A stretch of 64,000 bases of DNA from contig NZ_JH636436.1 of NCBI RefSeq assembly GCF_000255655.1, forward strand, positions 654,985-718,984, read 5' to 3'. Every line of letters starts with the position of its first letter. The first letter of the stretch is position 1. Under the pieces are notes generated by a model that searched no databases, was not told where the DNA came from, and saw nothing but the letters and a program-made list of their open reading frames with translations. This DNA is from Schlesneria paludicola DSM 18645. Its GTDB lineage: Bacteria > Planctomycetota > Planctomycetia > Planctomycetales > Planctomycetaceae. A program made the position numbers and the translations under genes. Positions 5,168 to 39,659 of this stretch are shown one piece after another.

Positions 5168-6382
5168 TCAGTGTGCGTGTGCGTGATGTCCGGCCGCTTC
5201 AACGGGTACTGCGGCCAAACGTCGTGCGAATGGACGTGTCGCCTGAGTGCCCATCAAGCCCGCGCCCAAAATTAGTCCCAAAGACATTGGCAAGAGCCAC
5301 CAGACGTTCAAATTGAATTGTTTGACGACCATCACAGTTACGACATTCAGCGTCGCCAACGGGATCATCACCTTCCAGGCAAGGCCCATCAGTTGATCGA
5401 ATCGGAAGCGAGGAATTGTCCATCGCAACATCTGAATCACGATGATGAAGGCGAACGACTTGGTCAGCAGAACGAGAACCTTAACCAGGGTTGAACCCAG
5501 ATAGTTACTGTTCGCTTCGGCGATGAATGGGAATTGCCAGCCACCGAAGAACAGGATGCTGGTCAGGAAGCTGATCGTGATGACGTGTGTGTATTCACCC
5601 AGGAAAAACAGACCCCATTTCATGGCGCTGTATTCGGTGTGCCAGCCACCGACGAGTTCTTGCTCACACTCTGACAAGTCAAACGGGAGACGCTGCGCTT
5701 CCGCCATGGCTGCGGTGAAAAAAAGAACGCACGCCAAAGGCTGAAACCAAATGTTCCAGCCAAAGATTCCTGCATTGGCCTGATGCAACAGGATCTTTTC
5801 GAGACTCATGGAATTGGTCAGCAGGGCGATACCAACCACCGACATTCCCAAGGGGATTTCGTAGCTGACCACTTGAGCGCTCGCCCGCATTGCACCAAGT
5901 GCGCTGTATTTATTGTTCGAGGCCCATCCACCGAGGATAACGCCGTACACGGCGAGGCTGCCGACTGCGAAAATGAAGATCAAACCCAGGTCAATCCCCG
6001 GGGCAATGATGAACGGAAATTGTCCGTCGGTCGAACTGAGGTTGTTTGGAACCGGTCCGAATGGCACAACGGCGAAAGCGAGCATCGTCGTGAATACTGA
6101 AATGCCCGGCGCAAGCAGAAACAAAACCTTGTTGACGTGACCCGGGATCACGTCTTCCTTGAGCAGCAGTTTGACCATGTCGGCGACGGGCTGAAGCAAA
6201 CCCCAGGGACCAACCCGGTTGGGGCCGATGCGGTCTTGCATCCACGCGGACAGCTTACGTTCGAGCAGAATCAGGTAGGAACACACGCCCAAATTGATGT
6301 TCATCACGATGGCAATCGTGAGCATCGGCATGACGAAGGGGCGAGCCCATTCCGGAAACCAGTTGATGAGTTGTTCAAGCAT
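5168..6382 (-). CDS. nuoH: NADH-quinone oxidoreductase subunit H
   Basis: 404-aa membrane ORF with NuoH/ND1-like sequence (LERKLSAWMQDRIGPNRVGP). Confidence 0.9.
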   Translation of the reverse strand: MLEQLINWFPEWARPFVMPMLTIAIVMNINLGVCSYLILLERKLSAWMQDRIGPNRVGPWGLLQPVADMVKLLLKEDVIPGHVNKVLFLLAPGISVFTTMLAFAVVPFGPVPNNLSSTDGQFPFIIAPGIDLGLIFIFAVGSLAVYGVILGGWASNNKYSALGAMRASAQVVSYEIPLGMSVVGIALLTNSMSLEKILLHQANAGIFGWNIWFQPLACVLFFTAAMAEAQRLPFDLSECEQELVGGWHTEYSAMKWGLFFLGEYTHVITISFLTSILFFGGWQFPFIAEANSNYLGSTLVKVLVLLTKSFAFIIVIQMLRWTIPRFRFDQLMGLAWKVMIPLATLNVVTVMVVKQFNLNVWWLLPMSLGLILGAGLMGTQATRPFARRLAAVPVEAAGHHAHAH

Positions 6383-8158: not shown

Positions 8159-9553
8159 TCAGTGGACTTCCATCAATGCGTCTGAGGGTTTCACGGTTTT
8201 GCGTCCGGTGCGAATGTACTCTTCAAACTCGCCGCGGAACTTCTTGATCGCATTCTTGATCGGCCAGGCTGCTCCGTCGGACAGACCACAGATCGTGGTG
8301 CCGGGGATGATGCCCATCGACGAGGCGACTTCGACGAGAAGATCGAGGTCGCGCAGTTGGCCTTCGCCCATTCGAATTCGGGCGAGAATCTTGTGCATCC
8401 ATGCGGTTCCTTCACGGCAGGGCGTGCATTGGCCGCACGATTCATGCGCAAAGAAGCGAGCACAGTTGAACAGGACGTCGACCATGCTGGTCTCATCGTC
8501 GATCACGGTGATCGCCGCCGTGCCGAGACCCAGGCAGCCGGCCTTGCCGGGGCCGTTGAAATCGAGTGGAAGATCCAATTCTTCCGCAGAGAGAAAGCCC
8601 ATGCTGATTCCACCGGGAACGACCGCCTTGGCTTTGCGACCTTTCCAGACACCACCGGCATGCTTGTCGATCAATTCACGAGTTGTGATACCCATTGGCA
8701 GTTCAACACAACCCGGCTTATTGACGTGACCGCTGATGCAATACAGCTTGGGACCGTAGCTGCCGGCGTCGCGAGGATTGTTGGGGTCGGGCGGGACACC
8801 CAGACTCTTGAACCAGGCCGAACCGCGATCAAGAATTTGCTTGACGCATGCCATCGTTTCGATGTTGTTGACGATGGTGGGTTTTCGGAACAGCCCTTCG
8901 ATGGCGGGGAACGGAGGCTTGATTCGTGGCCAGGCGCGTTTGCCTTCGAGGCTTTCGATCAGTCCGGTTTCTTCACCACAGATATAGGCCGCCGCACCGC
9001 GATGCAGCACAACGTCGAGATCGAATCCGGTACCATGGATGTTCTTTCCGAACAGTCCCTTGGCATAGCATTCGTCGACGGCCTTCTGCAAGACGCGATA
9101 GCTGCGACCATACTCGTATCGCAGATAGATATAGGCCTTGTTCGATTTAATGGCGAAGCAACTGATCGCAATCCCTTCGAGGATCTGATGGGGATCTTCT
9201 TCCATCAGGATGCGATTGTTGAACGTGGCCGGTTCGGATTCATCCGCGTTGATGGCGAGATAGATCGGTCCGGCATGGTCCTTTGGCAGGAACGTCCATT
9301 TTAATCCGGTGGGAAATCCGGCCCCGCCGCGACCGCGCAGCCCCGAATCTTTCACCAGATTGATGACGTCGACCGGTGGCATCGCGAGCGCTTTCTTGAA
9401 GCCCTCGTAGCCGCCGTCACGCAGGTAAGTTTCCAGCGACGCACTGTCTGGTTTCCCGACGCGTGCCAAAAGTGTTGGTTCAAAGGTGGGCATATGTGTC
9501 TCGGAAGAAGCATGCACGGTTCGTATCAGAATCGCCGTCGATTCTGGTCGCAT
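8159..9553 (-). CDS. nuoF: NADH-quinone oxidoreductase subunit F
   Basis: FMN/NADH-binding motifs (GRGGAGFPTGLKW) and a C-terminal 4Fe-4S motif (ESCGQCTPCREG). Confidence 0.9.
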   Translation of the reverse strand: MRPESTAILIRTVHASSETHMPTFEPTLLARVGKPDSASLETYLRDGGYEGFKKALAMPPVDVINLVKDSGLRGRGGAGFPTGLKWTFLPKDHAGPIYLAINADESEPATFNNRILMEEDPHQILEGIAISCFAIKSNKAYIYLRYEYGRSYRVLQKAVDECYAKGLFGKNIHGTGFDLDVVLHRGAAAYICGEETGLIESLEGKRAWPRIKPPFPAIEGLFRKPTIVNNIETMACVKQILDRGSAWFKSLGVPPDPNNPRDAGSYGPKLYCISGHVNKPGCVELPMGITTRELIDKHAGGVWKGRKAKAVVPGGISMGFLSAEELDLPLDFNGPGKAGCLGLGTAAITVIDDETSMVDVLFNCARFFAHESCGQCTPCREGTAWMHKILARIRMGEGQLRDLDLLVEVASSMGIIPGTTICGLSDGAAWPIKNAIKKFRGEFEEYIRTGRKTVKPSDALMEVH

Positions 9554-9584
9554 CCGCTAGGCTTCCAACTCCTGAATTCGACTC

Positions 9585-10070
9585 TCACAAGGACTTCAAA
9601 AGTGCATCCGCCTTCTCGGGCGTGATGTTCATATGGGCTTCGTCATCGACCAGGATGCAGGGAGCGCCTTCGCAGGCACCCAGGCATTCGGCAAATTCCA
9701 TCGTGATTTTTCCATCCGCGGACGTTTGCCCAGGATGCACATGCAACTTCTCGCACATGTGTTGCAGCAATTCTTCACCGCCGCGCAACATGCAACTGAT
9801 GCTGCGGCAGACCCAGACGCGATGCTTTCCCAGCTTGTGCTTCTCGTCTTTGAAGAACTGGTAGAACGACATCGTGTCGTGGACTTCGGACGGGTGCAGT
9901 TCAAGCAGTTCCGCAATCTCACGGACAGCTTCGATCGAAACCGATCGCTGTGCGTCCTGCACCAAGTGCAGCGCTGGCAGGACGACGGCTCGCTTATTCG
10001 GGTACTTTGGGAATTGCGCCCGGATCTGGTCTCGCAATTCCTCGCTCAACACGCCCATCGTTTCTCTCAC
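9585..10070 (-). CDS. nuoE: NADH-quinone oxidoreductase subunit E
   Basis: 161-aa thioredoxin-like 2Fe-2S protein (CRSISCMLRG...CLGACEGAP). Confidence 0.9.
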   Translation of the reverse strand: MRETMGVLSEELRDQIRAQFPKYPNKRAVVLPALHLVQDAQRSVSIEAVREIAELLELHPSEVHDTMSFYQFFKDEKHKLGKHRVWVCRSISCMLRGGEELLQHMCEKLHVHPGQTSADGKITMEFAECLGACEGAPCILVDDEAHMNITPEKADALLKSL

Positions 10071-10165
10071 TTCACAACAAAACTTCAGTACTTTGCGCTG
10101 CGTCTGTCTTTTGCGCTGGTGGCCAGGGTGCCACGGAAATCTTCATGTCGTGGGCTGCGGCCCGG

Positions 10166-11386
10166 TTATCGATCCAACTCTGCGGCGATGATGTTCAAGC
10201 TCCCGAGAACCGCGACCACGTCGCTGAGCTGGTGGTTCTTGATGATCTGCGGGAACACCGAGAAGTGAACGTAGCTCGGGGGACGCGTTCGGGCGCGGTA
10301 CGAACGCGGCGAACCATCGCCGACGATGTAGTAGCCCAGTTCCCCGTTTGGCGATTCGGTTGCCGCGTAGATTTCTTCTTTCGGAGTCGGGAAGCCGCGG
10401 TTTGGCATCATGACTTCGAAGTGCTGAATCAAACCCTCGATGCTGCGGTAAACGGACGGCTTGGCGGGAATGACGGCTTTGCTGCCGGCGTCAACGTTCA
10501 CTGGGCCTTCGGGAATGTTCTCGATGCACTGCTCGATGATCTTGATGCTTTCGACCATTTCCTGCATTCGCACGAGATACCGTGCGTAGCAATCGCCGTC
10601 TTTCGCGGCGACGACTTTGAAGTCGAGGTCGGCATAGGCAAGGTAGGGCTCGTCCTTACGCAAGTCACGCAGCACACCACTGGCGCGGGCCAAGGGGCCT
10701 GTCACACCCATGTTGATGCAGTCTTCTGCGCTCAGATGGCCAATCCCTTTGACACGCTCGATGAAGATGCGGTTACGGGTGAGAAGGCGGTGCACTTCGG
10801 CATGGACGTCAGGGAAGCCTTTGACGAACGCCCGTACCTTGTCGACCCAGGCATTGTTGACATCAAACGCGACACCACCGACGCGAGTGTAGCTGGTGTG
10901 GAATCGCTGGCCCGAGGCGGTTTCAACGATGTCGTAGATGCGTTCACGCTGCTGGAAGAAATACAAGAACGCCGTGAAGCCGCCGAGGTCCAGTGCACAG
11001 GTTCCGGTGTTGAGCAGGTGATCCTGGATTCGCATCAGCTCGGCGAGAATTGTTCGCAGATACTTGCAGCGTGGAGTGATCTCGATCCCCAACAGCTTTT
11101 CGACGGCATGGTGCCACGAAATCTCGTTGTGCAGCGGCGAGATGTAGTTCATCCGGTCGACGATGGTGACGTACTGATTGAAGTCGAGGTGCTCACCCAG
11201 CTTTTCGAATCCTGAATGCAGGTATCCGATGTGGGGTACGGCATTGACGACCGTTTCACCGTCGAGCGTCAGGATCAGCCGCAACGTGGTGTGTGTGGCG
11301 GGGTGCTGCGGACCAAAGTTCAGCGTCCAGAGGTATTCCTTGTCTGGAGCGTCCATTTCGGCGAGATCAGATACTTCGAAAGGCAT
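10166..11386 (-). CDS. nuoD: NADH-quinone oxidoreductase subunit D
   Basis: 406-aa ORF with a NuoD/49-kDa-like sequence; separate from nuoC. Confidence 0.9.
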   Translation of the reverse strand: MPFEVSDLAEMDAPDKEYLWTLNFGPQHPATHTTLRLILTLDGETVVNAVPHIGYLHSGFEKLGEHLDFNQYVTIVDRMNYISPLHNEISWHHAVEKLLGIEITPRCKYLRTILAELMRIQDHLLNTGTCALDLGGFTAFLYFFQQRERIYDIVETASGQRFHTSYTRVGGVAFDVNNAWVDKVRAFVKGFPDVHAEVHRLLTRNRIFIERVKGIGHLSAEDCINMGVTGPLARASGVLRDLRKDEPYLAYADLDFKVVAAKDGDCYARYLVRMQEMVESIKIIEQCIENIPEGPVNVDAGSKAVIPAKPSVYRSIEGLIQHFEVMMPNRGFPTPKEEIYAATESPNGELGYYIVGDGSPRSYRARTRPPSYVHFSVFPQIIKNHQLSDVVAVLGSLNIIAAELDR

Positions 11387-32958: not shown

Positions 32959-33030
32959 CGTGCTGTACGGGAGTCGAACCCGTGACTGCCAGATTCTCAG
33001 TCTGGTGCTCTACCTCTGAGCTAACGTCAC
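32959..33030 (-). tRNA. tRNA-like gene, anticodon GAG (leucine-type anticodon) but class-I length; acceptor stem with two internal mismatches (possible pseudogene)
   Basis: Good D-arm (GCTC-AGAGGTA-GAGC), anticodon arm (CCAGA-CTGAGAA-TCTGG) and T-arm (ACGGG-TTCGACT-CCCGT). Acceptor GTGACGT vs ACAGCAC has A·G and C·A mismatches. 5-nt variable region. Confidence 0.35.
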
Positions 33031-33134
33031 CAATGACTTCCGGTCAGAACCCATGTTCGGAACAGTCGGAGCAAAACTCTTTCGAGTGCCCCGACCGCCG
33101 CTGGACGGATGACATCAATGCTTTCAATCCAAAG

Positions 33135-33206
33135 AGACACCGGTGGGAGTCGAACCCACTGGATGCGGCTTTGCAGGCCGCCGCCACGCCGTGTGACATC
33201 AGCGTC
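33135..33206 (-). tRNA. tRNA-Cys (GCA)
   Basis: Anticodon arm GCGGC-CTGCAAA-GCCGC; T-loop TTCGACT; acceptor pairs with G·U wobbles; U73 discriminator as in tRNA-Cys. Confidence 0.55.
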
Positions 33207-33216
33207 ATTCAGTCAG

Positions 33217-33287
33217 TGTCCCTGCCAGGAGTTGAACCTGGTCTACGACCTTCGCAGGGTCGCGTGCATCCACCACACTCCAAGGAC
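33217..33287 (-). tRNA. tRNA-Arg (GCG)
   Basis: Acceptor GTCCTTG/CAGGGAC; D-stem GTGT/GCAC; anticodon loop CTGCGAA; T-loop TTCAACT; discriminator A. Confidence 0.6.
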
Positions 33288-33360
33288 AAAATATTGGTTC
33301 TCTCACTCAACGCGAGAACGACCTTCGATGACAAAACATTTGTGATCGCGCACTAAAAAA

Positions 33361-33431
33361 TACCCCACCGAGGAATCGAACCTCGCCCGACTGCTTCGAA
33401 GGCAGCCATGCATCCTTCACACTCGCAGGGC
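33361..33431 (-). tRNA. tRNA-Arg (TCG)
   Basis: Anticodon loop CTTCGAA; T-arm CGAGG-TTCGATT-CCTCG; acceptor pairs with three G·U wobbles. Confidence 0.5.
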
Positions 33432-33441
33432 ATATTTTCAT

Positions 33442-33513
33442 TCTCCCGACCTGGACTCGAACCAGGGCCTGGACCTTCGGAGAGTCCAATGCATTCCGCT
33501 ACAACATCGGGAC
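33442..33513 (-). tRNA. tRNA-Arg (CCG), G1·G72 mismatch
   Basis: Anticodon arm GGACT-CTCCGAA-GGTCC; T-arm CCTGG-TTCGAGT-CCAGG; first acceptor pair unpaired. Confidence 0.45.
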
Positions 33514-33599
33514 AAACAGGGCCGACGACTGGATTCGCACCAGCATGATTCCGCTTACAAGGCGGACGCCTTTCTCGATCGAGCCACGTCGGCAGTCAG

Positions 33600-33670
33600 C
33601 ACGAGCGCGAGGATTCGAACCCCATCCAGCAGTTTTGGAGGCTGCCCGCTCTCCCAGGAGCATCACTCGT
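33600..33670 (-). tRNA. tRNA-Trp (CCA)
   Basis: Anticodon loop CTCCAAA (as in E. coli tRNA-Trp); acceptor ACGAGTG/CGCTCGT; T-loop TTCGAAT; discriminator G. Confidence 0.5.
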
Positions 33671-33754
33671 GTGTTGCGTCCGCAAGGCGGGCACGAAAAA
33701 CATCGCGCGAACGATGAACCCATTCGTAACCCGTCTCGCGACGCGCATGAAAAA

Positions 33755-34402
33755 TCATTCATCCAATTCCACGGTCCAGTACGCCTCACTGAGGAACTTG
33801 GACCAGCTTCCGATCCGAACATCGTGCTGAGCATAGAGCGGTTTCCAGGTTGGACGTGTCGGCACCTTCTGCAACGGCATGTGTGCTTCAGCGGGTGTAC
33901 GATCGGCTTTGCGCAGGTTGCATTCCAGACACGCCAAAACACAGTTCTCCCAGACGCTGGTCCCACCTCGAGATCGAGGCAACACGTGATCGATCGTTAG
34001 GTCTTCTGTTCTGAGACACTCATGGCGCGGGCTGCGTTCGGCCTGTGAATCCCGATTGTCCACGCCGATGAAGCGGCTATGCCGCCCACAGTACTGACAG
34101 GTGTATCGATCTCGTTTGTAGATGTTTCGGCGACTGAATGTGACCGTGTTTGTGGGAACCCGGTCATATTCGGTCAGGGTGATCACCTCCGGCACGCGAA
34201 TCCGAGACGTCACCGACTGGACGAACAGTTCATCGTCCTGTGGGATTCGCTTCGCCCAATCAGCCCAGGTGTGCTGCTGAAAGTCAGCCGGATCGACGAT
34301 TCGTGCCCGTTCCGCAGCCACCAGCGTCAATGAACGTGCCACCGAGGCCACACCCACCGGCTGCCAGTTCCGGTTCAGTACCAGAGTCTGTCGACTCAAC
34401 AT
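33755..34402 (-). CDS. HNH endonuclease (McrA-like)
   Basis: HNH motif (YTCQYCG...IDHVLPRSRGGTSVWENCVLACLECNLRK). Start set at the internal Met (MLSRQTLVLN) so it does not overlap tRNA-His. Confidence 0.7.
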   Translation of the reverse strand: MLSRQTLVLNRNWQPVGVASVARSLTLVAAERARIVDPADFQQHTWADWAKRIPQDDELFVQSVTSRIRVPEVITLTEYDRVPTNTVTFSRRNIYKRDRYTCQYCGRHSRFIGVDNRDSQAERSPRHECLRTEDLTIDHVLPRSRGGTSVWENCVLACLECNLRKADRTPAEAHMPLQKVPTRPTWKPLYAQHDVRIGSWSKFLSEAYWTVELDE

Positions 34403-34434
34403 CGCCACCACGATTTTCTCTTTCTTATGAAAAG

Positions 34435-34509
34435 GGTGTTCGAACGGGATTGAACCGTCACCTTCGGCTTCACAGGCCGACATGCAGAAACCACTACACC
34501 ACGAACACC
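34435..34509 (-). tRNA. tRNA-His (GTG) with encoded G-1
   Basis: Anticodon arm TCGGC-CTGTGAA-GCCGA; acceptor GTGTTCG/CGAACAC; an extra 5' G (G-1) opposite the C73 discriminator, the hallmark of tRNA-His. Confidence 0.7.
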
Positions 34510-34510
34510 G

Positions 34511-34616
34511 CGCCTTCGCGCGAGAAAGTAGACAGTAGAGAGTTGAAAGTAGAACTGGTTCGCGACGCGTCTTGTCTACTCTCTACTTTCAATCAACTAC
34601 TTTCTCGCGCAGCGTG
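34511..34616. repeat. Palindromic spacer repeat family A, copy 1 (begins 2 nt upstream of the tRNA-His 5' end)
   Basis: cgccttcgcgcgagaaagtag...ctactttctcgcgcagcg with ~14-bp outer inverted repeats; related copies at 36741-36838 and 38998-39110. Confidence 0.55.
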
Positions 34617-34706
34617 CGGAAGGAGCGGGAGTTGAACCCGCAAGGCACATTAAAAATGCTCGACCGGCTTCCAACCGGTTCCCGTCACCATTCGGGTTGC
34701 CCTTCC
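34617..34706 (-). tRNA. tRNA-Ser (GGA), class II
   Basis: Anticodon arm ACCGG-TTGGAAG-CCGGT; long variable arm; T-arm GCGGG-TTCAACT-CCCGC; discriminator G. Confidence 0.55.
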
Positions 34707-34719
34707 GTTTTGACTTCAA

Positions 34720-34791
34720 TACCTCGACCAGGAATCGAACCCAGAACTCCCCGTTAGAAGCGGAGCATGATTTCTATTTCACCATCGAGGC
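34720..34791 (-). tRNA. tRNA-Arg (TCT)
   Basis: Acceptor GCCTCGA/TCGAGGT; anticodon arm CTCCG-CTTCTAA-CGGGG; T-loop TTCGATT; discriminator A. Confidence 0.6.
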
Positions 34792-34801
34792 CAAAAACAA
34801 G

Positions 34802-34889
34802 CGGAAGGCAAGGGATTCGAACCCTCATCTCCCGTGAGGGAGAGTCGCGTTAGCAGTGCGGTCCGGCCAACCGTATCCGGCTACCTTCC
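34802..34889 (-). tRNA. tRNA-Ser (GCT), class II, weak anticodon stem
   Basis: Anticodon loop CTGCTAA; variable arm CTCCC-TCAC-GGGAG; T-arm GAGGG-TTCGAAT-CCCTT; discriminator G; anticodon stem has terminal mismatches. Confidence 0.5.
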
Positions 34890-34927
34890 AATATCGAAAA
34901 GTTGAAATGCGTTTGCGCGGCATGGTC

Positions 34928-35416
34928 TCATCGCCGTTTCACGCCAGGATCGGCGAAATGTTCAATTCTTGTATGCCGTCCCGTTTCAATGTCCGCGAAG
35001 ACGTAATTCTCCGACGCGACCGGTGACCCAGCCATCCTCCGGAAAATGCCGATCTGCCCCAAGTGCAGCATCGCGTCCGCAAACGGACCTTGCAGCAGGT
35101 CCTCTTCATTGACATCGCGAATTGAAGACTCGTTGAGAAGTGACGCGTCAAGCTTTGCTAGGATCTCGAAGTAACCAAACACTTCGGCATTCCATGCCAA
35201 CATAGGCGGCTCAGTGGATTCATAGGGAACCATGAACGAATGCGCGTAGATGAGCACACCTCTCATGTGATTGAGAATCTCGCGTGGGCTTCGAACAGAT
35301 TCTGAGGGCCGGAAGTCTGCGATTTCCGGTGGCATATTCCTGAGCACATTGGCTCCGCGATATGCCAGCGCCGACAGAAAGTGCCGCAGCATGTATCTCT
35401 TCGTCGTTGTTTCCAT
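34928..35416 (-). CDS. DinB/YfiT-like four-helix-bundle protein (hypothetical)
   Basis: Start has GGAGAT 5 nt upstream (METTTKRYMLRHF...). DinB_2-like size and His spacing. Weak assignment. Confidence 0.45.
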   Translation of the reverse strand: METTTKRYMLRHFLSALAYRGANVLRNMPPEIADFRPSESVRSPREILNHMRGVLIYAHSFMVPYESTEPPMLAWNAEVFGYFEILAKLDASLLNESSIRDVNEEDLLQGPFADAMLHLGQIGIFRRMAGSPVASENYVFADIETGRHTRIEHFADPGVKRR

Positions 35417-35589
35417 CGTTATCTCCAATTGTTCCCAACGATTCGCCAAAGCGGCCTGTGAACATACTGAGTCGATTGATCCCCAATAGCGTTGAACCAT
35501 CAGTTCCAGCATGTCAGGTTGATGTCGTACTGATTGATCATGACGTCATGATCAATCGAATAACGAAATCTGAGACCTCAATCCAGAAG

Positions 35590-36254
35590 TTATTCCCAGT
35601 ATTGCTCCCACTTGTCGCCGTAAGATTCCTTGAGGCGTTCTAGGTAGACATAAGTCTTGATCTTGCCCATTTGCAAATCGCGGCCGCTTCGTCCTGATTT
35701 GCAAATGACACCCTCGGTGACACCGTATTTCCCGCAACGAACATCTTCGGCGAATGCCCCGGTGAACTTGCCACGGTGAACTTGCCACGGTACACGATTC
35801 GTGCAATCGGAAGATGTCCGAACCGTTCTACGAATTCGAAAGGCCCGAGTAGGTCTTCGTCACGTGCGACATCAAACATGACCAATCGCTTGACATCATC
35901 AAATTTATGTCGCCCAGCGAATGAATTCGCTCCGAGGTATTCAGCAAATGCAGTGAACCCTTGAACTGTGCTTTCCGAGGCCAATTCACTGAACGTGTGG
36001 GCCAAGGACGCGGACAATGTTTGACGAAAAACTTCCATCGCATCCGATAGCTCAGGGTGATCGTGACGAAACAGTTCCTCGCCGCGATCATCAATATTGA
36101 ACTCATCGCGTCGCGTTCCAAACGCATGCCAGCCGAAGTCCCGATCCCAACGGAAATGCAAATTCGTTCCGTCGTATTTTTCGAAAGCTATGCACTCGGT
36201 GAACGGGAAGTCTTTAGTGTTCGGAATCTTGCGGTAATGTAGCGCGGAGGGCAT
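35590..36254 (-). pseudogene. Rnl2-family ATP-dependent RNA ligase (nucleotidyltransferase domain), apparently frameshifted by a 14-bp tandem duplication at 35761-35788
   Basis: Motif I EKYDGTNLHF (cf. T4 Rnl2 EKIHGTNF), motif III-like AFAEYLG, motif IV LVMFDV and RGKF are in the annotated 204-aa frame (35640-36254). Motif V EGVICKSG appears only in the frame restored by deleting one 14-nt unit, which then runs to TAA at 35590. Confidence 0.5.
35761..35788. repeat. Perfect 14-bp tandem duplication (ggtgaacttgccac x2) inside the RNA-ligase coding region
   Basis: Direct reading of the sequence; the unit length is not a multiple of 3. Confidence 0.9.
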
Positions 36255-36343
36255 GGAGGAATCCTGGCTATCGACCTGATCGCTTTTCCTGTTTGCGTAC
36301 TTGGCCGTCTACTTTCACGGTCGGGTGCCTGCCCTGTCTGCAG

Positions 36344-36428
36344 TGACCAAGGGGAGAGTCGAACTCCCAAGCCCACGAGGGGCACGACGTTCTGAGCGTC
36401 GCGTGTCTACCAGTTGCACCACTTGGCC
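36344..36428 (-). tRNA. tRNA-Leu (CAG), canonical class II
   Basis: 3-bp D-stem with 11-nt loop containing GGTAGA; anticodon arm CGACG-CTCAGAA-CGTCG; 16-nt variable arm (GCCC-CTCGT-GGGC); discriminator A. Confidence 0.7.
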
Positions 36429-36436
36429 ATAATCAG

Positions 36437-36509
36437 TGACCCGTGCGGGATTTGAACCCGCGTTGCCGGCATGAGGGGCCAGCATCCTGAACCGCTAGAA
36501 GAACGGGCC
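36437..36509 (-). tRNA. tRNA-like gene with atypical anticodon loop CCCTCAT (C33; anticodon CTC/Glu-like or CAT-like)
   Basis: Good acceptor (GGCCCGT/ACGGGTC), T-arm GCGGG-TTCAAAT-CCCGC, 6-bp anticodon stem; identity unresolved. Confidence 0.35.
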
Positions 36510-36519
36510 GTTGTTCGAG

Positions 36520-36600
36520 TGCGTCGGGCAGGAGTTGAACCTGCACTGCACGAGGCGGGTGGGTTACAGCCACTTGGGCACGCCAATGCCCAGCCGACGC
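36520..36600 (-). tRNA. tRNA-Tyr (GTA), class II
   Basis: Acceptor GCGTCGG/CCGACGC perfect; D-stem GGGC/GCCC; anticodon loop CTGTAAC; 13-nt variable arm; discriminator A. Confidence 0.65.
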
Positions 36601-36664
36601 ATTCTAATTCGCGCTCACGAATATCTTGCAAACGGGTGTCGTTCGCGCGATGCACGTGAGCGAG

Positions 36665-36739
36665 TAACACGGGTGGGAGTCGAACCCACAGACCACGAAG
36701 GTTTGAGCTTCGCCGCTTTGCCGGATTGCGTACCGTGCC
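36665..36739 (-). tRNA. tRNA with CAA (leucine-type) anticodon, Leu-like D-arm but short variable region (class I length, 75 nt)
   Basis: Anticodon arm CGAAG-CTCAAAC-CTTCG perfect; D-stem CGC/GCG with 11-nt loop; variable region only 6 nt; discriminator A. Confidence 0.5.
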
Positions 36740-36740
36740 G

Positions 36741-36838
36741 CGCCTTCTGCGAGAGAGTAAAAGGTTGAAAGTCGCAAGTAGACAAGAATGGATCCGTCTA
36801 CTCTCAACTCACTACCACCTACTTTCTCGCGCAGCGTA
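36741..36838. repeat. Palindromic spacer repeat family A, copy 2 (fills the spacer between two tRNAs)
   Basis: cgccttctgcgagagagta...ctactttctcgcgcagcgtagc; shares the termini of copy 1. Confidence 0.55.
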
Positions 36839-36839
36839 G

Positions 36840-36913
36840 CGTCCTCGATGGGATTTGAACCCACGTCTCCACCGTGACAGGATGGAGAGCATTCCAGGCT
36901 GCTCCGCGAGGAC
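36840..36913 (-). tRNA. tRNA-Asp (GTC)
   Basis: Acceptor GTCCTCG/CGAGGAC perfect; D-arm GAGC/GCTC; anticodon loop CTGTCAC; discriminator G. Confidence 0.7.
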
Positions 36914-37034
36914 TTTTTCACGCGCGATCAAGATGGGAATGGAAATCAGTGTCGACCGCGCGTTGATAATTAACTCACCTCCCAACGCGCGAGTGACTGG
37001 GTCTGCGCAACCCATCACCGACGCGCACTAAACG

Positions 37035-37108
37035 TAGCTCAGGTGGGAGTCGAACCCACAGCATCCCTGGTTCTAAGCCAAGGTGGTCTGCCGATTGCCT
37101 ACCGAGCC
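37035..37108 (-). tRNA. tRNA with TAG (leucine-type) anticodon and short variable region; weak D-stem
   Basis: Anticodon arm CTTGG-CTTAGAA-CCAGG; T-arm GTGGG-TTCGACT-CCCAC; 6-nt variable region; discriminator A. Confidence 0.45.
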
Positions 37109-37121
37109 ATGTCTTGTTTGA

Positions 37122-37194
37122 TGCCCAGAGCGGGATTTGAACCCGCAAACACTCGATCTTAAGTCGAGTCACTCACACGTTGGCGTACCTGGGC
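37122..37194 (-). tRNA. tRNA with TAA (leucine-type) anticodon and 5-nt variable region (73 nt)
   Basis: Acceptor GCCCAGG/TCTGGGC; 3-bp D-stem plus 10-nt loop; anticodon arm CTCGA-CTTAAGA-TCGAG perfect; T-arm GCGGG-TTCAAAT-CCCGC; discriminator A. Confidence 0.5.
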
Positions 37195-37206
37195 ATGTCA
37201 TCGAAG

Positions 37207-37278
37207 TAATCCCGGATGGACTCGAACCATCGTTACCTGGGTGTAGGCCAGGCGTCGTCGCCGCTGGACCACGGGATC
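37207..37278 (-). tRNA. tRNA-Val (TAC) with C33
   Basis: Anticodon arm CCTGG-CCTACAC-CCAGG (position 33 is C); T-arm GATGG-TTCGAGT-CCATC; discriminator A. Confidence 0.5.
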
Positions 37279-37288
37279 AAATAAAAAA

Positions 37289-37359
37289 TGGACTTATCGG
37301 GAATCGCACCCGAATTTTTGGTTTGCAGGACCGATGTCTTCCTGTTGGACCATGAGCCC
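37289..37359 (-). pseudogene. Degenerate tRNA-like element (non-canonical T-loop TGCGATT, acceptor and anticodon-stem mismatches; loop CCTGCAA)
   Basis: Only partial cloverleaf complementarity. Confidence 0.25.
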
Positions 37360-37379
37360 GATTGTTCGTCGCCAGCGAG

Positions 37380-37465
37380 CGGAAGCCGTGGGGCTCGAAC
37401 CCACAAGCGGGATGTTCCCGCCGCCTGTTTTCAAGACAGGTTCCTCATCCGGCCGGATGACTTCC
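37380..37465 (-). tRNA. tRNA-Ser (TGA), class II
   Basis: Acceptor GGAAGTC/GGCTTCC; anticodon arm CCTGT-CTTGAAA-ACAGG; variable arm GCGGG-AACAT-CCCGC; discriminator G. Confidence 0.6.
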
Positions 37466-37477
37466 GTAATCTGTAAA

Positions 37478-37551
37478 TTGTGGGAGTTGGAATCGAACCA
37501 ACGCCTCCGGGTTCAGAGCCCAGCATCGCCACCAGCAGCGACTATCCCGCA
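37478..37551 (-). tRNA. tRNA-Gln (CTG)
   Basis: U1-A72 first pair as in tRNA-Gln; D-stem GTCG/CGAT; anticodon arm CTGGG-CTCTGAA-CCCGG; one C3·A70 mismatch. Confidence 0.55.
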
Positions 37552-37627
37552 ATGAATTTGATTGAGACAAGACACTCGTACTTTCCAAGGGTTCGTGTGC
37601 TACCGTGGTTCTCGGTAAACTGATGGA

Positions 37628-38101
37628 ATGGATGTGAACTGTGCCAAGCAGATGTTCTTTGCCTACGACGGGTCGCGTTTCTACATGTCGCGAAACGGAG
37701 ATGAGGACAAATACGCTCAGATGCAGGTCCCAGCATCGATCGAAGCACAATGGTTGGATGAGTTGACATCTCGCAAACTCGATCAACTCATTTCTTCGGC
37801 AAATTGGATGGTTGTACATTTTCTCCTTCATCATTCCGACTTCCGCCAATTGGACCGACTCGCCGCAGCTGCGCCATTGGGAACTCTTCAGGAGAAATGT
37901 GCATTTCTTGAGGAACTCCTAAAATATGTACAGCAATGTTGTGGAGCATATGAGTCCAGTCGTCTCGCTAACGTTTGCGATTCAATTCTTCGAGATGCAT
38001 TCACGTTGCGAAAGCGGGCTCGGGCGAAGAATTCCCTTGCTCGAATTGAACGCCTCGTCGAGAACGCCGAAAAGTTTGTCGCGACGTTGCTCTCAGATTG
38101 A
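37628..38101 (+). CDS. Hypothetical protein (157 aa) in a lower-GC segment inside the tRNA array
   Basis: Intact ORF on the opposite strand to the array with no overlap with tRNAs; no recognisable motif. Confidence 0.4.
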   Translation: MDVNCAKQMFFAYDGSRFYMSRNGDEDKYAQMQVPASIEAQWLDELTSRKLDQLISSANWMVVHFLLHHSDFRQLDRLAAAAPLGTLQEKCAFLEELLKYVQQCCGAYESSRLANVCDSILRDAFTLRKRARAKNSLARIERLVENAEKFVATLLSD

Positions 38102-38104
38102 TGA

Positions 38105-38178
38105 ATTGCGGGGGCAGGAATCGAACCTGCGCCTCCGGGGTCAAAGCCCAGCATCGCTGCCAACAGCGACTACCCCGC
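38105..38178 (-). tRNA. tRNA-Gln (TTG)
   Basis: Acceptor TGCGGGG/CCCCGCA perfect with U1-A72; anticodon arm CTGGG-CTTTGAC-CCCGG; T-arm GCAGG-TTCGATT-CCTGC. Confidence 0.7.
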
Positions 38179-38185
38179 AATGGAA

Positions 38186-38257
38186 GAGGGACGGGTGGGA
38201 CTCGAACCCACGCGCTGGTGCTTAACAAACACCTGCTCTGCCGCTGAGCTACCGACC
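38186..38257 (-). tRNA. tRNA-Asn (GTT), T4·T69 acceptor mismatch
   Basis: D-arm GCTC-AGCGGCA-GAGC; anticodon arm GGTGT-TTGTTAA-GCACC; T-arm GTGGG-TTCGAGT-CCCAC. Confidence 0.55.
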
Positions 38258-38264
38258 CAATCGA

Positions 38265-38336
38265 GAGTGCCCTGCGGGAATCGAACCCGCCTGTCCAACT
38301 TGGAAGGCTGGCACCTCTGCCGATCGGTCAAGGGCA
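38265..38336 (-). tRNA. tRNA-Gly (TCC)
   Basis: Acceptor GTGCCCT/AGGGCAC perfect; anticodon arm CCAGC-CTTCCAA-GTTGG; U73 discriminator. Confidence 0.65.
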
Positions 38337-38359
38337 CATATTCTTTCCTCAAGTCGGAA

Positions 38360-38491
38360 GCCGTGGGACTCGAACCCACAATCCCGATTCTCGGGACACC
38401 TGCTTTCGAGCGTTGTACATCTATCGCGGCTTCAGCCTTCATCCTCGCTTTCGCTCGGCCGCAGGCCTTGCTTCCAGCCGGATGACTTCCA
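38360..38491 (-). tRNA. tRNA-Ser(CGA)-like gene with a ~50-nt insertion between anticodon-stem position 31 and the loop (intron-like or disrupted)
   Basis: Ends match tRNA-Ser(TGA) at 37380-37465 (GGAAGTCATCC... / ...GTGGGTTCGAGTCCCACGGCTTCCG). Stem CCTGC/GCAGG encloses the 50-nt insert followed by a canonical loop CTCGAAA. Variable arm TCCCG-AGAAT-CGGGA intact. Confidence 0.3.
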
Positions 38492-38634
38492 TTCGTGTTA
38501 AGGCTGCGGCGACAGGAATCGAACCATCAACCGAAGCCGCTGGCCGAATAGGTCAGTTGAAGGCGAAGGGCGATAGTCTTTCAAATCCGAGTCGCCTGCC
38601 CGTACCAACACGGACTCCACCGCAATTTATATCA

Positions 38635-38708
38635 GTCAGCGCGGTCGGATTTGAACCGACGATCTCGTGGTCCCAAGCCACGCGGATTTCCATGCTTTCC
38701 CACACGCT
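38635..38708 (-). tRNA. tRNA-Pro (TGG)
   Basis: C1-G72 first pair and A73, typical of tRNA-Pro; anticodon arm CGTGG-CTTGGGA-CCACG; T-arm GTCGG-TTCAAAT-CCGAC. Confidence 0.7.
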
Positions 38709-38768
38709 GACAATCGTTCATCGCGGATCGACCTTCGTTGTCATCAAGGATCGTCCACGCGAACAAAA

Positions 38769-38839
38769 AAGCACCCAGCGGGAGTTGAACCCGCACCTCC
38801 GCCTTGGCGAGACGGTACGCTGCCGCTACGTCATGGGTG
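38769..38839 (-). tRNA. tRNA-Gly (GCC) with C33
   Basis: Acceptor GCACCCA/TGGGTGC perfect; D-stem ACGT/GCGT; anticodon loop TCGCCAA; U73. Confidence 0.5.
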
Positions 38840-38923
38840 CATGCATTCCTGGCCGAATTGTTAAAGACCTATTCGCAACGCGCGATTGGCCAAGTTTGTG
38901 AACTCGCTTCATCGCGCATGAAA

Positions 38924-38995
38924 AAGCACCGGGTGGGACTCGAACCCACGTTGCCGTATTACGGGTGCGGTGTCTTGGCCGCTAAACGACCAGTG
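38924..38995 (-). tRNA. tRNA-Thr (CGT) with C33
   Basis: Acceptor GCACTGG/CCGGTGC; D-stem GTTT/AGAC; anticodon arm CCGCA-CCCGTAA-TACGG (one mismatch); T-arm GTGGG-TTCGAGT-CCCAC. Confidence 0.45.
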
Positions 38996-38997
38996 CA

Positions 38998-39110
38998 GCG
39001 CCTTCGGCGAGAAAGTAGAGAGTGGAAAGTCGTGAGTGGACAAGAACCGATCCGTCTACTTTCCACTCTCTACGGACTATTCTCTCTGTCCCGGCACGCC
39101 GGGACAGAGA
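38998..39110. repeat. Palindromic spacer repeat family A, copy 3, plus a 13-bp hairpin (ctctctgtcccgg/ccgggacagagag) that overlaps the 3' end of tRNA-Lys(CTT)
   Basis: cgccttcggcgagaaagtagagagtggaaagt...actttccactctctac has a perfect 16-bp inverted repeat. It starts 3 nt upstream of the 5' end of the preceding tRNA. Confidence 0.55.
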
Positions 39111-39179
39111 GACCAGACGGACTTGAACCGTCACTTGCTCGGGTAAGAACCGAGTGTGCTGCCACTAACACCTTGATCC
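39107..39179 (-). tRNA. tRNA-Lys (CTT)
   Basis: D-stem GTGT/GCAC; anticodon arm CTCGG-TTCTTAC-CCGAG perfect; T-arm GACGG-TTCAAGT-CCGTC; acceptor with two G·U wobbles. Confidence 0.6.
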
Positions 39180-39196
39180 CGTAATCCTTCGTTCAG

Positions 39197-39268
39197 TTAG
39201 GCCTGGGCGGAGTTGAACCGTCGTCTGGCCCTTATAAGGAGCCTGCTCTCATCGTTGAGCTACAGGCC
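39197..39268 (-). tRNA. tRNA-Ile (TAT)
   Basis: Canonical D-arm GCTC-AACGATGA-GAGC; anticodon arm GGCTC-CTTATAA-GGGCC; A73. Confidence 0.55.
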
Positions 39269-39277
39269 CAGTAATCA

Positions 39278-39349
39278 ATGGGGCCGGAGGGATTCGAACC
39301 CCCACCGGGCAGATTAAAAGTCTGCTGTGCTGCAGTTACACCACGACCC
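39278..39349 (-). tRNA. tRNA-Lys (TTT)
   Basis: Acceptor GGGGTCG/CGGCCCC; anticodon arm GCAGA-CTTTTAA-TCTGC perfect; T-loop TTCGAAT; A73. Confidence 0.65.
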
Positions 39350-39410
39350 CGGATGAGGACGTGGTTCCATTTGTTCGTGAGGTCTCGATCCATAATCTGC
39401 ACCTTGTTCA

Positions 39411-39481
39411 ATCGCTTGGAGTGGAGTTGAACCACCGCTGTCGCCGTATCAGAACGACGTGCTTCCGTTACACCACCAAGC
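39411..39481 (-). tRNA. tRNA-Ile (GAT)
   Basis: Acceptor CGCTTGG/CCAAGCG perfect; anticodon loop CTGATAC; T-arm GGTGG-TTCAACT-CCACT; A73. Confidence 0.6.
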
Positions 39482-39623
39482 GGAGTCGGGATGGTCAGAA
39501 TCGAACTGACTGTGTTCAACTACCGCGGCCCGGCCTTCATCCTCGCTATTCGCTCGGCGTCATTCCTTACTTCTCAGCTACCAGCCCGGAAATGACAGAA
39601 CTTTGACTTCGTCAAAACGAAGA

Positions 39624-39659
39624 AGCCCGGTGTCCTTTGCGTGACACCGGGCTCTTTTG
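39624..39659. terminator. GC-rich hairpin (11-bp stem agcccggtgtc/gacaccgggct) followed by a T-run; reads as a terminator in both orientations
   Basis: Perfect inverted repeat with cttttg on the plus strand and tcttcgttttg on the minus strand; lies at the upstream (minus-sense) edge of the tRNA array. Confidence 0.4.

Follow-up and report, generated by a model that had tools for sequence, protein, structure and literature searches.

The question raised by this locus is what has happened to a tRNA gene whose anticodon stem encloses 50 additional nucleotides (nt). In the 64,000-nt stretch of Schlesneria paludicola DSM 18645 analyzed here (contig NZ_JH636436.1, positions 654,985 to 718,984; hereafter the window) a tRNA-Ser(CGA) gene of this kind lies within a long array of tRNA genes. 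An earlier note, made from the sequence alone, had offered two explanations for the insert, a mobile intron-like element or a miniature insertion element disrupting tRNAs. We favor the second: the insert is probably a small, structure-dependent and non-autonomous mobile hairpin, similar to the repetitive extragenic palindromic (REP) sequences, without terminal repeats or target duplication, and the tRNA-Ser gene that carries it is most likely inactive. We prefer this explanation because filled sites can be set against empty ones, the junctions are alike, the distribution is patchy, both orientations occur, the hairpin is constrained and tagged with GTAG, and signatures of introns were not found.

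The interrupted tRNA-Ser gene

The interrupted gene occupies 38355..38490 of the minus strand, with the acceptor strands GGAAGTC...GGCTTCC and the discriminator G at 38355, as judged from the sequence, from ARAGORN and from intact orthologs. Read from 38490 to 38355 it consists of GGAAGTCATCCGGCTGGAAGCAAGGCCTGC, a 50-nt block, CTCGAAAGCAGG, a long variable arm, the T-arm, GGCTTCC and the final G. The limits first proposed for it (38360-38491) located the gene correctly but clipped the 3' acceptor by 5 nt and ran 1 nt too far at the 5' end. It is called neither by standard ARAGORN nor by Rfam; once the 50 nt GGCCGAGCG...CAACG (38460..38411) are deleted, ARAGORN accepts an 89-nt tRNA-Ser(CGA). 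In intron mode the same program proposed 101 nt as the intron, a spurious solution whose acceptor is poor and which was rejected in favor of the 50-nt one. Formally, then, the block whose removal leaves a canonical tRNA (38411..38460, minus strand), and which corresponds to the "insert" first described, stands between tRNA positions 31 and 32.

Uninterrupted tRNA-Ser(CGA) orthologs were aligned from three syntenic arrays, L122, L125 and L129 (loci compared with the window are given L numbers). The L122 ortholog (10746-10835), near-identical to the exons of the window gene, sets the 50-nt length difference exactly between CCTGC and CTCGAAA. Both this empty ortholog and the ARAGORN call after deletion bear out the description of the locus as a tRNA-Ser(CGA)-like gene with a 50-nt insertion. 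The likeness of its 5' end and 3' half to tRNA-Ser(TGA), here placed at 37379-37465, was also recovered, and concerns the 5' end and the T-arm/acceptor.

Three copies of a hairpin unit

We searched the 64 kb with a covariance model of the repeated unit (R1, filters off) and found three copies and nothing else below E = 0.5. All three are inside tRNA or tRNA-like genes, and the non-array DNA of the window, about 57 kb, contains no copy under the same settings.

Copy 1 is the one in tRNA-Ser (AGCAA...GCGAUAG, 52 nt; 38421..38472, minus strand; cmsearch 58.7 bits, E about 2e-13; included in alignments A3 and A4). The outer stem of the unit, P1, is degenerate here, and its 5' strand, GGCCUGCG, provides the CCUGC that pairs with GCAGG of the tRNA.

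Copy 2 (AGUAA...GCGGUAG; 39520..39571, minus strand; 64.7 bits) stands at the 5' start of the array, within a tRNA-Pro(TGG)-like frame at 39486..39588 (minus strand). The acceptor of this frame, CGGGCTG/CATCCCG, forms 6 of 7 pairs and the T-arm reads GTCAG-TTCGATT-CTGAC, while no anticodon arm was found in it. The T-arm/acceptor sequence that flanks the copy on its 3' side is identical at 22 of 25 positions to the 3' end of tRNA-Pro(TGG) in L125, and an ortholog of the whole copy starts the L122 array (8326-8376), also after a similar terminator. This agrees with the previous report of a second insert, about 85% identical to the first and fused to a T-arm/acceptor fragment: copies 1 and 2 are 81% identical over the 53-column unit, and 84% over the strings originally compared. 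The match is not due to chance, since the 26-nt core common to both was found in none of 100 shuffles and the two copies score 58.7 and 64.7 bits.

Copy 3 had been missed. It is antisense and divergent (38526..38576, plus strand; 37 bits, E about 1e-7), with a fully Watson-Crick inner helix (H1), and lies head-to-head with copy 1 at a distance of 53 nt. Its host is a tRNA-Pro(CGG)-like pseudogene (38504..38624, minus strand) with the acceptor TGCGGTG/CGCCGCA, a D-arm, the loop CTCGGAT and the T-loop GGTTCGATTCC; when about 45 nt around the copy are deleted, ARAGORN reports tRNA-Pro(cgg). This copy sits in the space, seemingly empty, that separates tRNA-Pro(TGG) from the interrupted tRNA-Ser. 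In both sense copies of the window the complementarity of P1 has been lost.

Structure of the unit

Read in the tRNA sense, the unit is 50-53 nt long and consists of AGCAA, an 8-nt strand of P1, a G, CCGAGC, a loop, GCGAGG, AUGAA, the return strand of P1 and GCGGUAG. Every copy shows AGCAA, exactly 8 nt and then GCCGAG, and G(G/A)UAG ends 21 of the 22 complete copies. P1 has 8 variable pairs, the middle two of which are often G.A/A.G; a 1x5 internal loop sets a G opposite AUGAA; and H1 is made of CC/GG, an invariant tandem G.A and SC/GS, with a GNRA-like loop of 4-5 nt. The unit matched no Rfam family, even at E <= 10, in the region searched (30.5-40.5 kb).

In a MAFFT alignment of 15 copies (A3), 87% of the cells are paired, compared with 67% in shuffles and 25-41% in slid registers, and the covariation score is 0.457 compared with 0.119, a value reached by none of 500 shuffles. 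Double changes occur in 7 of the 8 P1 pairs, and the H1 pair 19-27 alternates between GC and CG. The same helices are predicted by RNAalifold. A larger alignment of 23 copies gives the same pairing and covariation figures, but it was fitted to R1, and the independent A3 is the cleaner test. These results strongly support a structural constraint on the hairpin. The fold is also asymmetric with respect to the strand, with 8 G.U against 3 A.C and 23 G.A against 2 C.U, and it is therefore the tRNA-sense strand that folds, be it in the form of RNA or of single-stranded DNA.

Insertions compared with empty sites

The unit also interrupts protein-coding genes. In L101 it parts the two halves of a gene for a RayT-type Y1 transposase; comparison with the intact homologs L130/L131 defines a 52-nt block, which matches the model-defined AGCAA...GGTAG within 1-2 nt and shifts the reading frame. 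An upstream CGA codon of this gene has become TGA, so the gene is dead. In L130 a divergent, inverted unit splits another RayT gene at the HUH motif, with a net gain of 50 nt, and in L139 a unit interrupts IS3 OrfA, in which subtraction of 50 nt restores the frame ...NQYGG...AKRLSALEDENRRLKQLVAD. L131 (5-94 vs 96-653), used as the "intact" RayT reference, is itself frame-changed near the N-terminus, and pseudogenes may be frequent among these RayT genes of planctomycetes.

Concerning the junctions, 11 of 22 copies read ...GA|AGCAA at the 5' side and 13 of 22 read GUAG|U at the 3' side, and the empty sites are alike: GGA|TGAGGAAC in tRNA-Ser and AGA|TCAGGAAC in RayT. The two ends, AGCAA and GGTAG, are not inverted repeats of each other, and no direct repeats flank the four insertions for which the empty site is known or can be deduced. 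Insertion would usually take place at ...RGA|T... junctions, without terminal inverted repeats or target duplication. Since the insertions also fall in protein-coding transposase genes, and in both orientations, the suggestion of a miniature insertion element that disrupts tRNAs is the one we retain.

Distribution of the unit

A search for further copies had been proposed. Besides the third copy in the window, about 20 more were found in four related arrays. The genome-wide scan with exact patterns returned at least 120 loci; among the matches listed, 119 were chance occurrences in GC-rich coding DNA and one was real (L101, from a Planctomyces metagenome-assembled genome, MAG). The metagenome scan with the exact core pointed to L122, L124/L125 and L128/L129, which are syntenic tRNA arrays, and, false positives apart, it gave only arrays and one RayT locus. 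These false positives are L121, L123 (the coding sequence of a signal peptide, on the opposite strand) and L126; a further one, L141, came from the viral scan. L132, L138, L139 and L140 were reached through the proteins of the island. No unit was found in the phage, plasmid and viral collections.

The window array holds three units, L122, L125 and L129 four each (L125 with a weak antisense match in addition) and L139 six. By contrast, L140 (35 tRNAs) and L138 have none, and L132 has only a deleted remnant. The positions of the units differ among the syntenic arrays: copies are found directly after tRNA 3' ends (A-CT-AGCAA), after a 5' fragment of tRNA-Gln, in a tRNA-Gly-like gene and at the start of the array. 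Both orientations occur, with 19 of the 22 array-borne copies in the tRNA sense. The weak match of L125 (1343-1389, plus strand, the same as L124 3399-3445, plus strand; about 15 bits; CTACCGC...TTGCT) lies in an atypical tRNA-like gene downstream of L125_1503, and is probably another decayed antisense insertion. Deletion scanning of the gene near 1852 in L125 produced many spurious tRNA calls.

Units are almost absent from the remaining related arrays and from some 190 kb of planctomycete flanking DNA, and the 52 kb surrounding the three intact RayT loci L135-L137 contain none. The unit is strongly tied to tRNA arrays and is not a generic intergenic repeat unrelated to tRNAs, one part of what the earlier note had named as its refutation.

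Probable history of the insertion in tRNA-Ser

In L132 (Thalassoglobus sp.) the tRNA-Ser gene at the orthologous position reads GGAAGTCATCCGGCCGGA-AGCAAGGTGATGGCCGCGGTAG-TTGAAAACTG-CTTGAAAACAGG... (8659-8763, plus strand). Both ends of the unit are kept and its core is deleted (AGCAAGG...GCCGCGGTAG); no anticodon stem is possible, and the acceptor and T-arm are identical to those of the window gene. The segment TTGAAAACTG is recognizably derived from an original TGAGGAACCTGT, and ATGTACAACG of the window (38411..38420, minus strand) aligns to it. By comparison with L132 and with intact Ser genes, ATGTACAACG is the putative decayed remnant of the 3' strand of the D-arm together with the 5' strand of the anticodon stem (TGAGGAGCCTGC).

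Because the L132 remnant aligns in this way, we infer that the whole unit entered the D-loop of tRNA-Ser(CGA), after ...CCGGCTGGA (...GGA), in a common ancestor of the window and L132 genes. The 12 nt that it displaced would then have decayed to ATGTACAACG. The first 12 nt of the unit, AGCAAGGCCTGC, may mimic the displaced TGAGGAGCCTGC, being of equal length and containing the same CCTGC, and it is because AGCAAGGCCTGC stands in for TGAGGAGCCTGC that deletion of 50 nt regenerates a tRNA. The copy of L101 has GGCCGGCC at the place of CCTGC, which a single G>T change would produce. An insertion that targets the anticodon stems of tRNAs, as initially supposed, does not agree with this comparison, which points to entry through the D-loop. 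As no known excision signal is present, the tRNA-Ser(CGA) with its insert is most likely inactive as a decoder.

Relationship to known elements

The mobile intron-like element, the other explanation originally offered, is not supported: neither a bulge-helix-bulge nor a group I core is present, Rfam gives no match, and copies occur in antisense, behind tRNA 3' ends and in protein genes. A bulge-helix-bulge (two 3-nt bulges on opposite strands, each with a splice site, and a 4-bp helix between them), for which a fold of insert and flanks had been recommended, is absent from the minimum-free-energy fold of the precursor: there a 3x3 internal loop adjoins the 5' site, and a 6-bp helix contains the 3' site. 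A group I core (P3-P9) takes over 200 nt, compared with 50 nt of insert, and no Rfam intron matched at E <= 10. The self-cleaving ribozymes (hammerhead, twister, pistol, hatchet, hepatitis delta virus-like) gave no Rfam match overlapping the units between 30.5 and 40.5 kb at E <= 10. Kink-turn, hammerhead, box C/D, signal recognition particle RNA and tmRNA were also considered by eye and in Rfam, and none fits. The unit resembles tRNA introns in that it intervenes in the region of the anticodon arm and that a tRNA is restored when it is removed exactly; however it stands at 31/32 and not at 37/38, shows no bulge-helix-bulge, is too short for group I, and also occurs outside tRNAs and in antisense.

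The REPs are a closer comparison. These are short stem-loops tagged with GTAG and thought to be mobilized by RAYT proteins; they have been reported in the Planctomycetes-Verrucomicrobia-Chlamydiae (PVC) group, including Planctomycetes, and sometimes inside genes, and classical ones measure 20-40 bp, carry GTAG 5' of the hairpin, lie mostly outside genes across the whole genome and exceed 100 per genome (PMC3733652). Like them, the unit is an imperfect stem-loop with GTAG at one end and without terminal repeats or target duplication, occurs singly and in inverted pairs, and can lie inside genes; two units sit inside RayT genes (L101, L130). Unlike them, it is 50-53 nt long, carries its GTAG on the 3' side of the hairpin and at a distance from it, has a low copy number and is concentrated in tRNA arrays. 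A classical REPtron is not the explanation, as the intact RayT loci L135-L137 have no flanking units, and the units of L101 and L130 do not flank the RayT gene but interrupt it.

MITEs (miniature inverted-repeat transposable elements) differ from the unit, which has neither terminal inverted repeats nor target-site duplication. Rickettsia palindromic elements are selfish palindromes inside coding genes, tagged with CGTC (PMC3733652). The unit is likewise palindromic and found inside coding genes. The Rickettsia elements are about 100-150 bp long, insert in frame and also occur in RNA genes, whereas the unit has about 50 nt, is tagged with GTAG, and breaks the frame by its 50/52-nt insertions. 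In the IS200/IS605 family, according to the cited sections of PMC6006769, HUH/Y1 transposition proceeds through single-stranded hairpins. Miniatures of this family share with the unit a strand-specific imperfect hairpin, the lack of terminal inverted repeats and target duplication, and insertion biased to a short motif; they differ in having distinct left and right ends in place of a single hairpin, no tnpA is linked to the unit, and its target motif is weak beside the fixed 4-5-nt target of that family, with the RGA|...|T(C/T) bias in only about half of the copies. Taken together, the definitions of MITEs and Rickettsia palindromic elements fail, and we consider the unit a new variant among small palindromic mobile elements and not a member of the REPs.

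Movement would proceed through a single-stranded hairpin recognized by a structure-specific enzyme, for which our best guess is a HUH/Y1 transposase of the RayT type, and copies would be retained in dispensable DNA, both in transposase genes and, within the long tRNA arrays of planctomycetes, in spacers and redundant tRNA genes. If this is true, the unit stands for a family, so far undescribed, of structured mobile elements of very small size that live in the redundant tRNA genes of long arrays that spread horizontally, and shows how such arrays gather pseudo-tRNAs and chimeric tRNA-like genes. Interrupted genes escape tRNA finders, and tRNA repertoires are consequently miscounted. The combination of a hypervariable complementary stem, an invariant hairpin with tandem G.A and a GTAG tag also makes a tractable substrate for finding the enzyme that recognizes it.

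Several points weigh against a mobile element. Its GTAG lies 3' of the hairpin, 3 nt away (GC(G) in between), and so has the opposite polarity to that of REPs. Copy number is low, with none in the non-array DNA of the window, near RayT or in phage and plasmid records as given above, and the census is biased, as the collections were scanned with exact-match patterns. No RayT gene, and thus no linked mobilizing enzyme, was found in the window or in the arrays. The HNH endonuclease of the array does not serve as a partner either: it accompanies units in three arrays and is absent from L132, but L140 and L138 have it without units.

The exons of the interrupted gene are a further difficulty. Orthologous tRNAs of the window and L132 arrays are 74-93% identical, that is, the arrays are well diverged, whereas the interrupted Ser exons are 94-100% identical (17/18 at the 5' end, 27/27 in T-arm and acceptor), and the differences between their variable arms are compensated. 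The L132 array contains no intact Ser(NGA) paralog from which gene conversion could have drawn. On the sequences compared, this conservation suggests constraint or gene conversion and not free decay. That CCTGC restores the anticodon stem at its native distance is either a coincidence, whose chance we put at a few percent, or weak evidence of selection. Finally, P1 is divergent within one array and yet complementary, a pattern at least as much to be expected of a functional RNA of long standing as of recent transposition.

Alternative explanations

It is unlikely, in our view, that the hairpin is transcribed together with the tRNAs and functions as an RNA module within the array transcripts, for instance as a signal for processing or stability, a protein-binding site, or a released small RNA or decoy of about 60 nt. 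Such a module would have spread by duplication and recombination between tRNA genes, with the copy in tRNA-Ser as a by-product, and would be compatible with mobility. A role at the RNA level is kept alive by the conservation of the Ser exons, the bias to the tRNA sense, the restriction to arrays and the covariation of P1. In detail, besides the 19 sense copies of 22, many copies begin 0-2 nt past the discriminator base of a tRNA (ACU-AGCAA), and it is the sense strand that folds, as judged from the G.U and G.A asymmetry, the invariant tandem G.A and the GNRA-like loops; the internal loops are invariant while P1 covaries strongly; and the units are nearly confined to the long tRNA arrays (L-arrays). 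Moreover, some fusions are kept between arrays, such as the 5' part of tRNA-Gln joined to a unit, with a co-varying D-stem (L122, L125), and the copy at the array start (window, L122). However whole arrays do without units (L140 and L138, with the remnant only in L132), positions vary among syntenic arrays, antisense copies exist, protein genes outside the arrays are interrupted and frameshifted, the pairing of P1 is lost in copies of the window, and no partner protein co-occurs with the unit.

A true tRNA intron seems quite improbable. Here a protein endonuclease with the RNA ligase of the island, or self-cleavage and ligation, would yield a functional tRNA-Ser(CGA), and would act on transposase mRNAs as well. 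In agreement with this, removal of exactly 50 nt leaves a canonical tRNA with the anticodon stem at native distance, removal of 50-52 nt restores the frame in all three protein genes, and the interrupted Ser exons are highly conserved with a compensated variable arm. An RNA-ligase-family gene is also present in the island (PF09414, E = 0.0015; PHROG RNA ligase, E = 1e-6), and, according to the cited sections of PMC8421152, L-arrays are co-regulated with RtcB in Anabaena, where a translation inhibitor induces them. Nevertheless, a bulge-helix-bulge is lacking, and a predicted helix encloses what would formally be the 3' splice site; features of group I and group II introns are absent, and no ribozyme family matched. 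The limits of the unit in protein genes (AGCAA...GUAG) differ from those of the block to be removed from the tRNA. Furthermore, the L132 ortholog keeps a deleted remnant that allows no anticodon stem, the L101 gene is dead through a nonsense mutation, and the RNA signal of the sense copies would be of no use to an antisense copy in a tRNA. The RNA ligase itself was rejected as a partner: it is found in L132, where no unit is intact, and outside arrays (L133/L134), and is absent from the L129 locus. A wider form of this explanation, a mini-intron cut at the RNA level from tRNA precursors and transposase mRNAs by an endonuclease and the array RNA ligase or RtcB, or self-excising, and also moving between genes, is highly doubtful; if true, tRNA-Ser(CGA) would be functional and bacteria would have mini-introns of a new class.

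It is very improbable that the unit is a recombination scar, a degenerate piece of tRNA origin that unequal crossing-over has moved about among the tRNA genes of the array and that is not mobile by itself: many copies are indeed flanked by different tRNA pieces (Gln 5' part, Pro 3' part, Gly frame) and AGCAA often coincides with the 3' strand of a D-stem, but clean insertions of the 50-53-nt unit lie in three protein-coding genes without tRNA homology, and the hairpin covaries, which would not be expected of a scar. The stretch GCCGAGCG...GAAGGC resembles a class II D-arm such as that of E. coli tRNA-Ser; as the core of the unit this arm was rejected, since its GCC/GGC pairing is not conserved across copies, and it is at most an evolutionary echo.

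The host tRNA array and its neighborhood

The long tRNA array occupies 32959..39588 on the minus strand and comprises 30 tRNAs called by ARAGORN, 2 seen only by Rfam and the three interrupted genes (about 33 genes). For the whole window ARAGORN gives 31 tRNAs, to which Rfam adds the same two: an Arg(TCG) with a CTTCGAA loop (33361-33431, minus strand), missed by ARAGORN, and an atypical tRNA (37289-37359, minus strand) whose 5' part, GGGCTCATGGTCCAACAGGAAGAC..., recurs just downstream of a unit in L125. The gene order of the window array is found in L122, L125, L129, L132, L139 and L140. Its flanks carry ordinary chromosomal genes (complex I, NiFe hydrogenase and maturation genes, GFO/IDH/MocA oxidoreductases), and a Band_7 gene adjoins it, as in the related arrays L132 and L129. 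Long tRNA arrays are known from several phyla, including Planctomycetes, with a patchy distribution, according to the cited sections of PMC8421152. With its roughly 33 co-oriented tRNA genes, its planctomycete host and its patchy occurrence, the array of the window corresponds to that description; it differs in its conserved chromosomal locus beside a Band_7 gene and in its interspersed hairpin element, of which the cited sections of PMC8421152 and PMC4758250 make no mention.

Scanning of the open reading frames (ORFs) of the island gave HNH and RNA-ligase domains only. The HNH endonuclease gene (33755-34483, minus strand) lies between tRNA-His and tRNA-Trp, a position kept in several arrays (55-81% identity), and its family is very common in Planctomycetes, with 4635 matches at E <= 1e-20. 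The protein encoded in the window is 100% identical to one from Schlesneria paludicola, which marks this planctomycete as the source of the DNA. The ORFs at 35640-36254 (minus), 34928-35512 (minus) and 37628-38101 (plus) encode the RNA-ligase-family protein (204 aa) and two proteins without a family match; the plus-strand ORF has no counterpart in other arrays and is possibly spurious. The ligase occurs also in the L132 array and at the non-array loci L133 and L134.

The first tRNA-like gene of the array has, only about 35 nt upstream, a strong hairpin resembling an intrinsic terminator (39623-39654, minus strand), with the same layout in L122, and no sigma-70-like promoter was found between the two. 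The array includes a tRNA-Ile with the anticodon TAT (39196-39270, minus strand), which is present also in L122, L125, L129 and L132. Such a tRNA is unusual, since in bacteria AUA is as a rule decoded by a CAT tRNA modified with lysidine. Pairs of atypical tRNA-Met genes with the anticodon at position 30-31 and odd T-loops were seen in L129 (10238-10307 and 10392-10462) and in L139 (602-671 and 713-782); they are called by ARAGORN and not by Rfam at the gathering threshold, and in L129 a unit directly precedes each of them. L140 (features at 9493-11130 and 5794-5866), from a Planctomyces MAG, has its unit-free array of 35 tRNAs a few kb from a Ro60/TROVE gene; the partners of Ro60/TROVE proteins are the tRNA-like Y RNAs. 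The same array holds an ARAGORN call of "tRNA-SeC(tca)".

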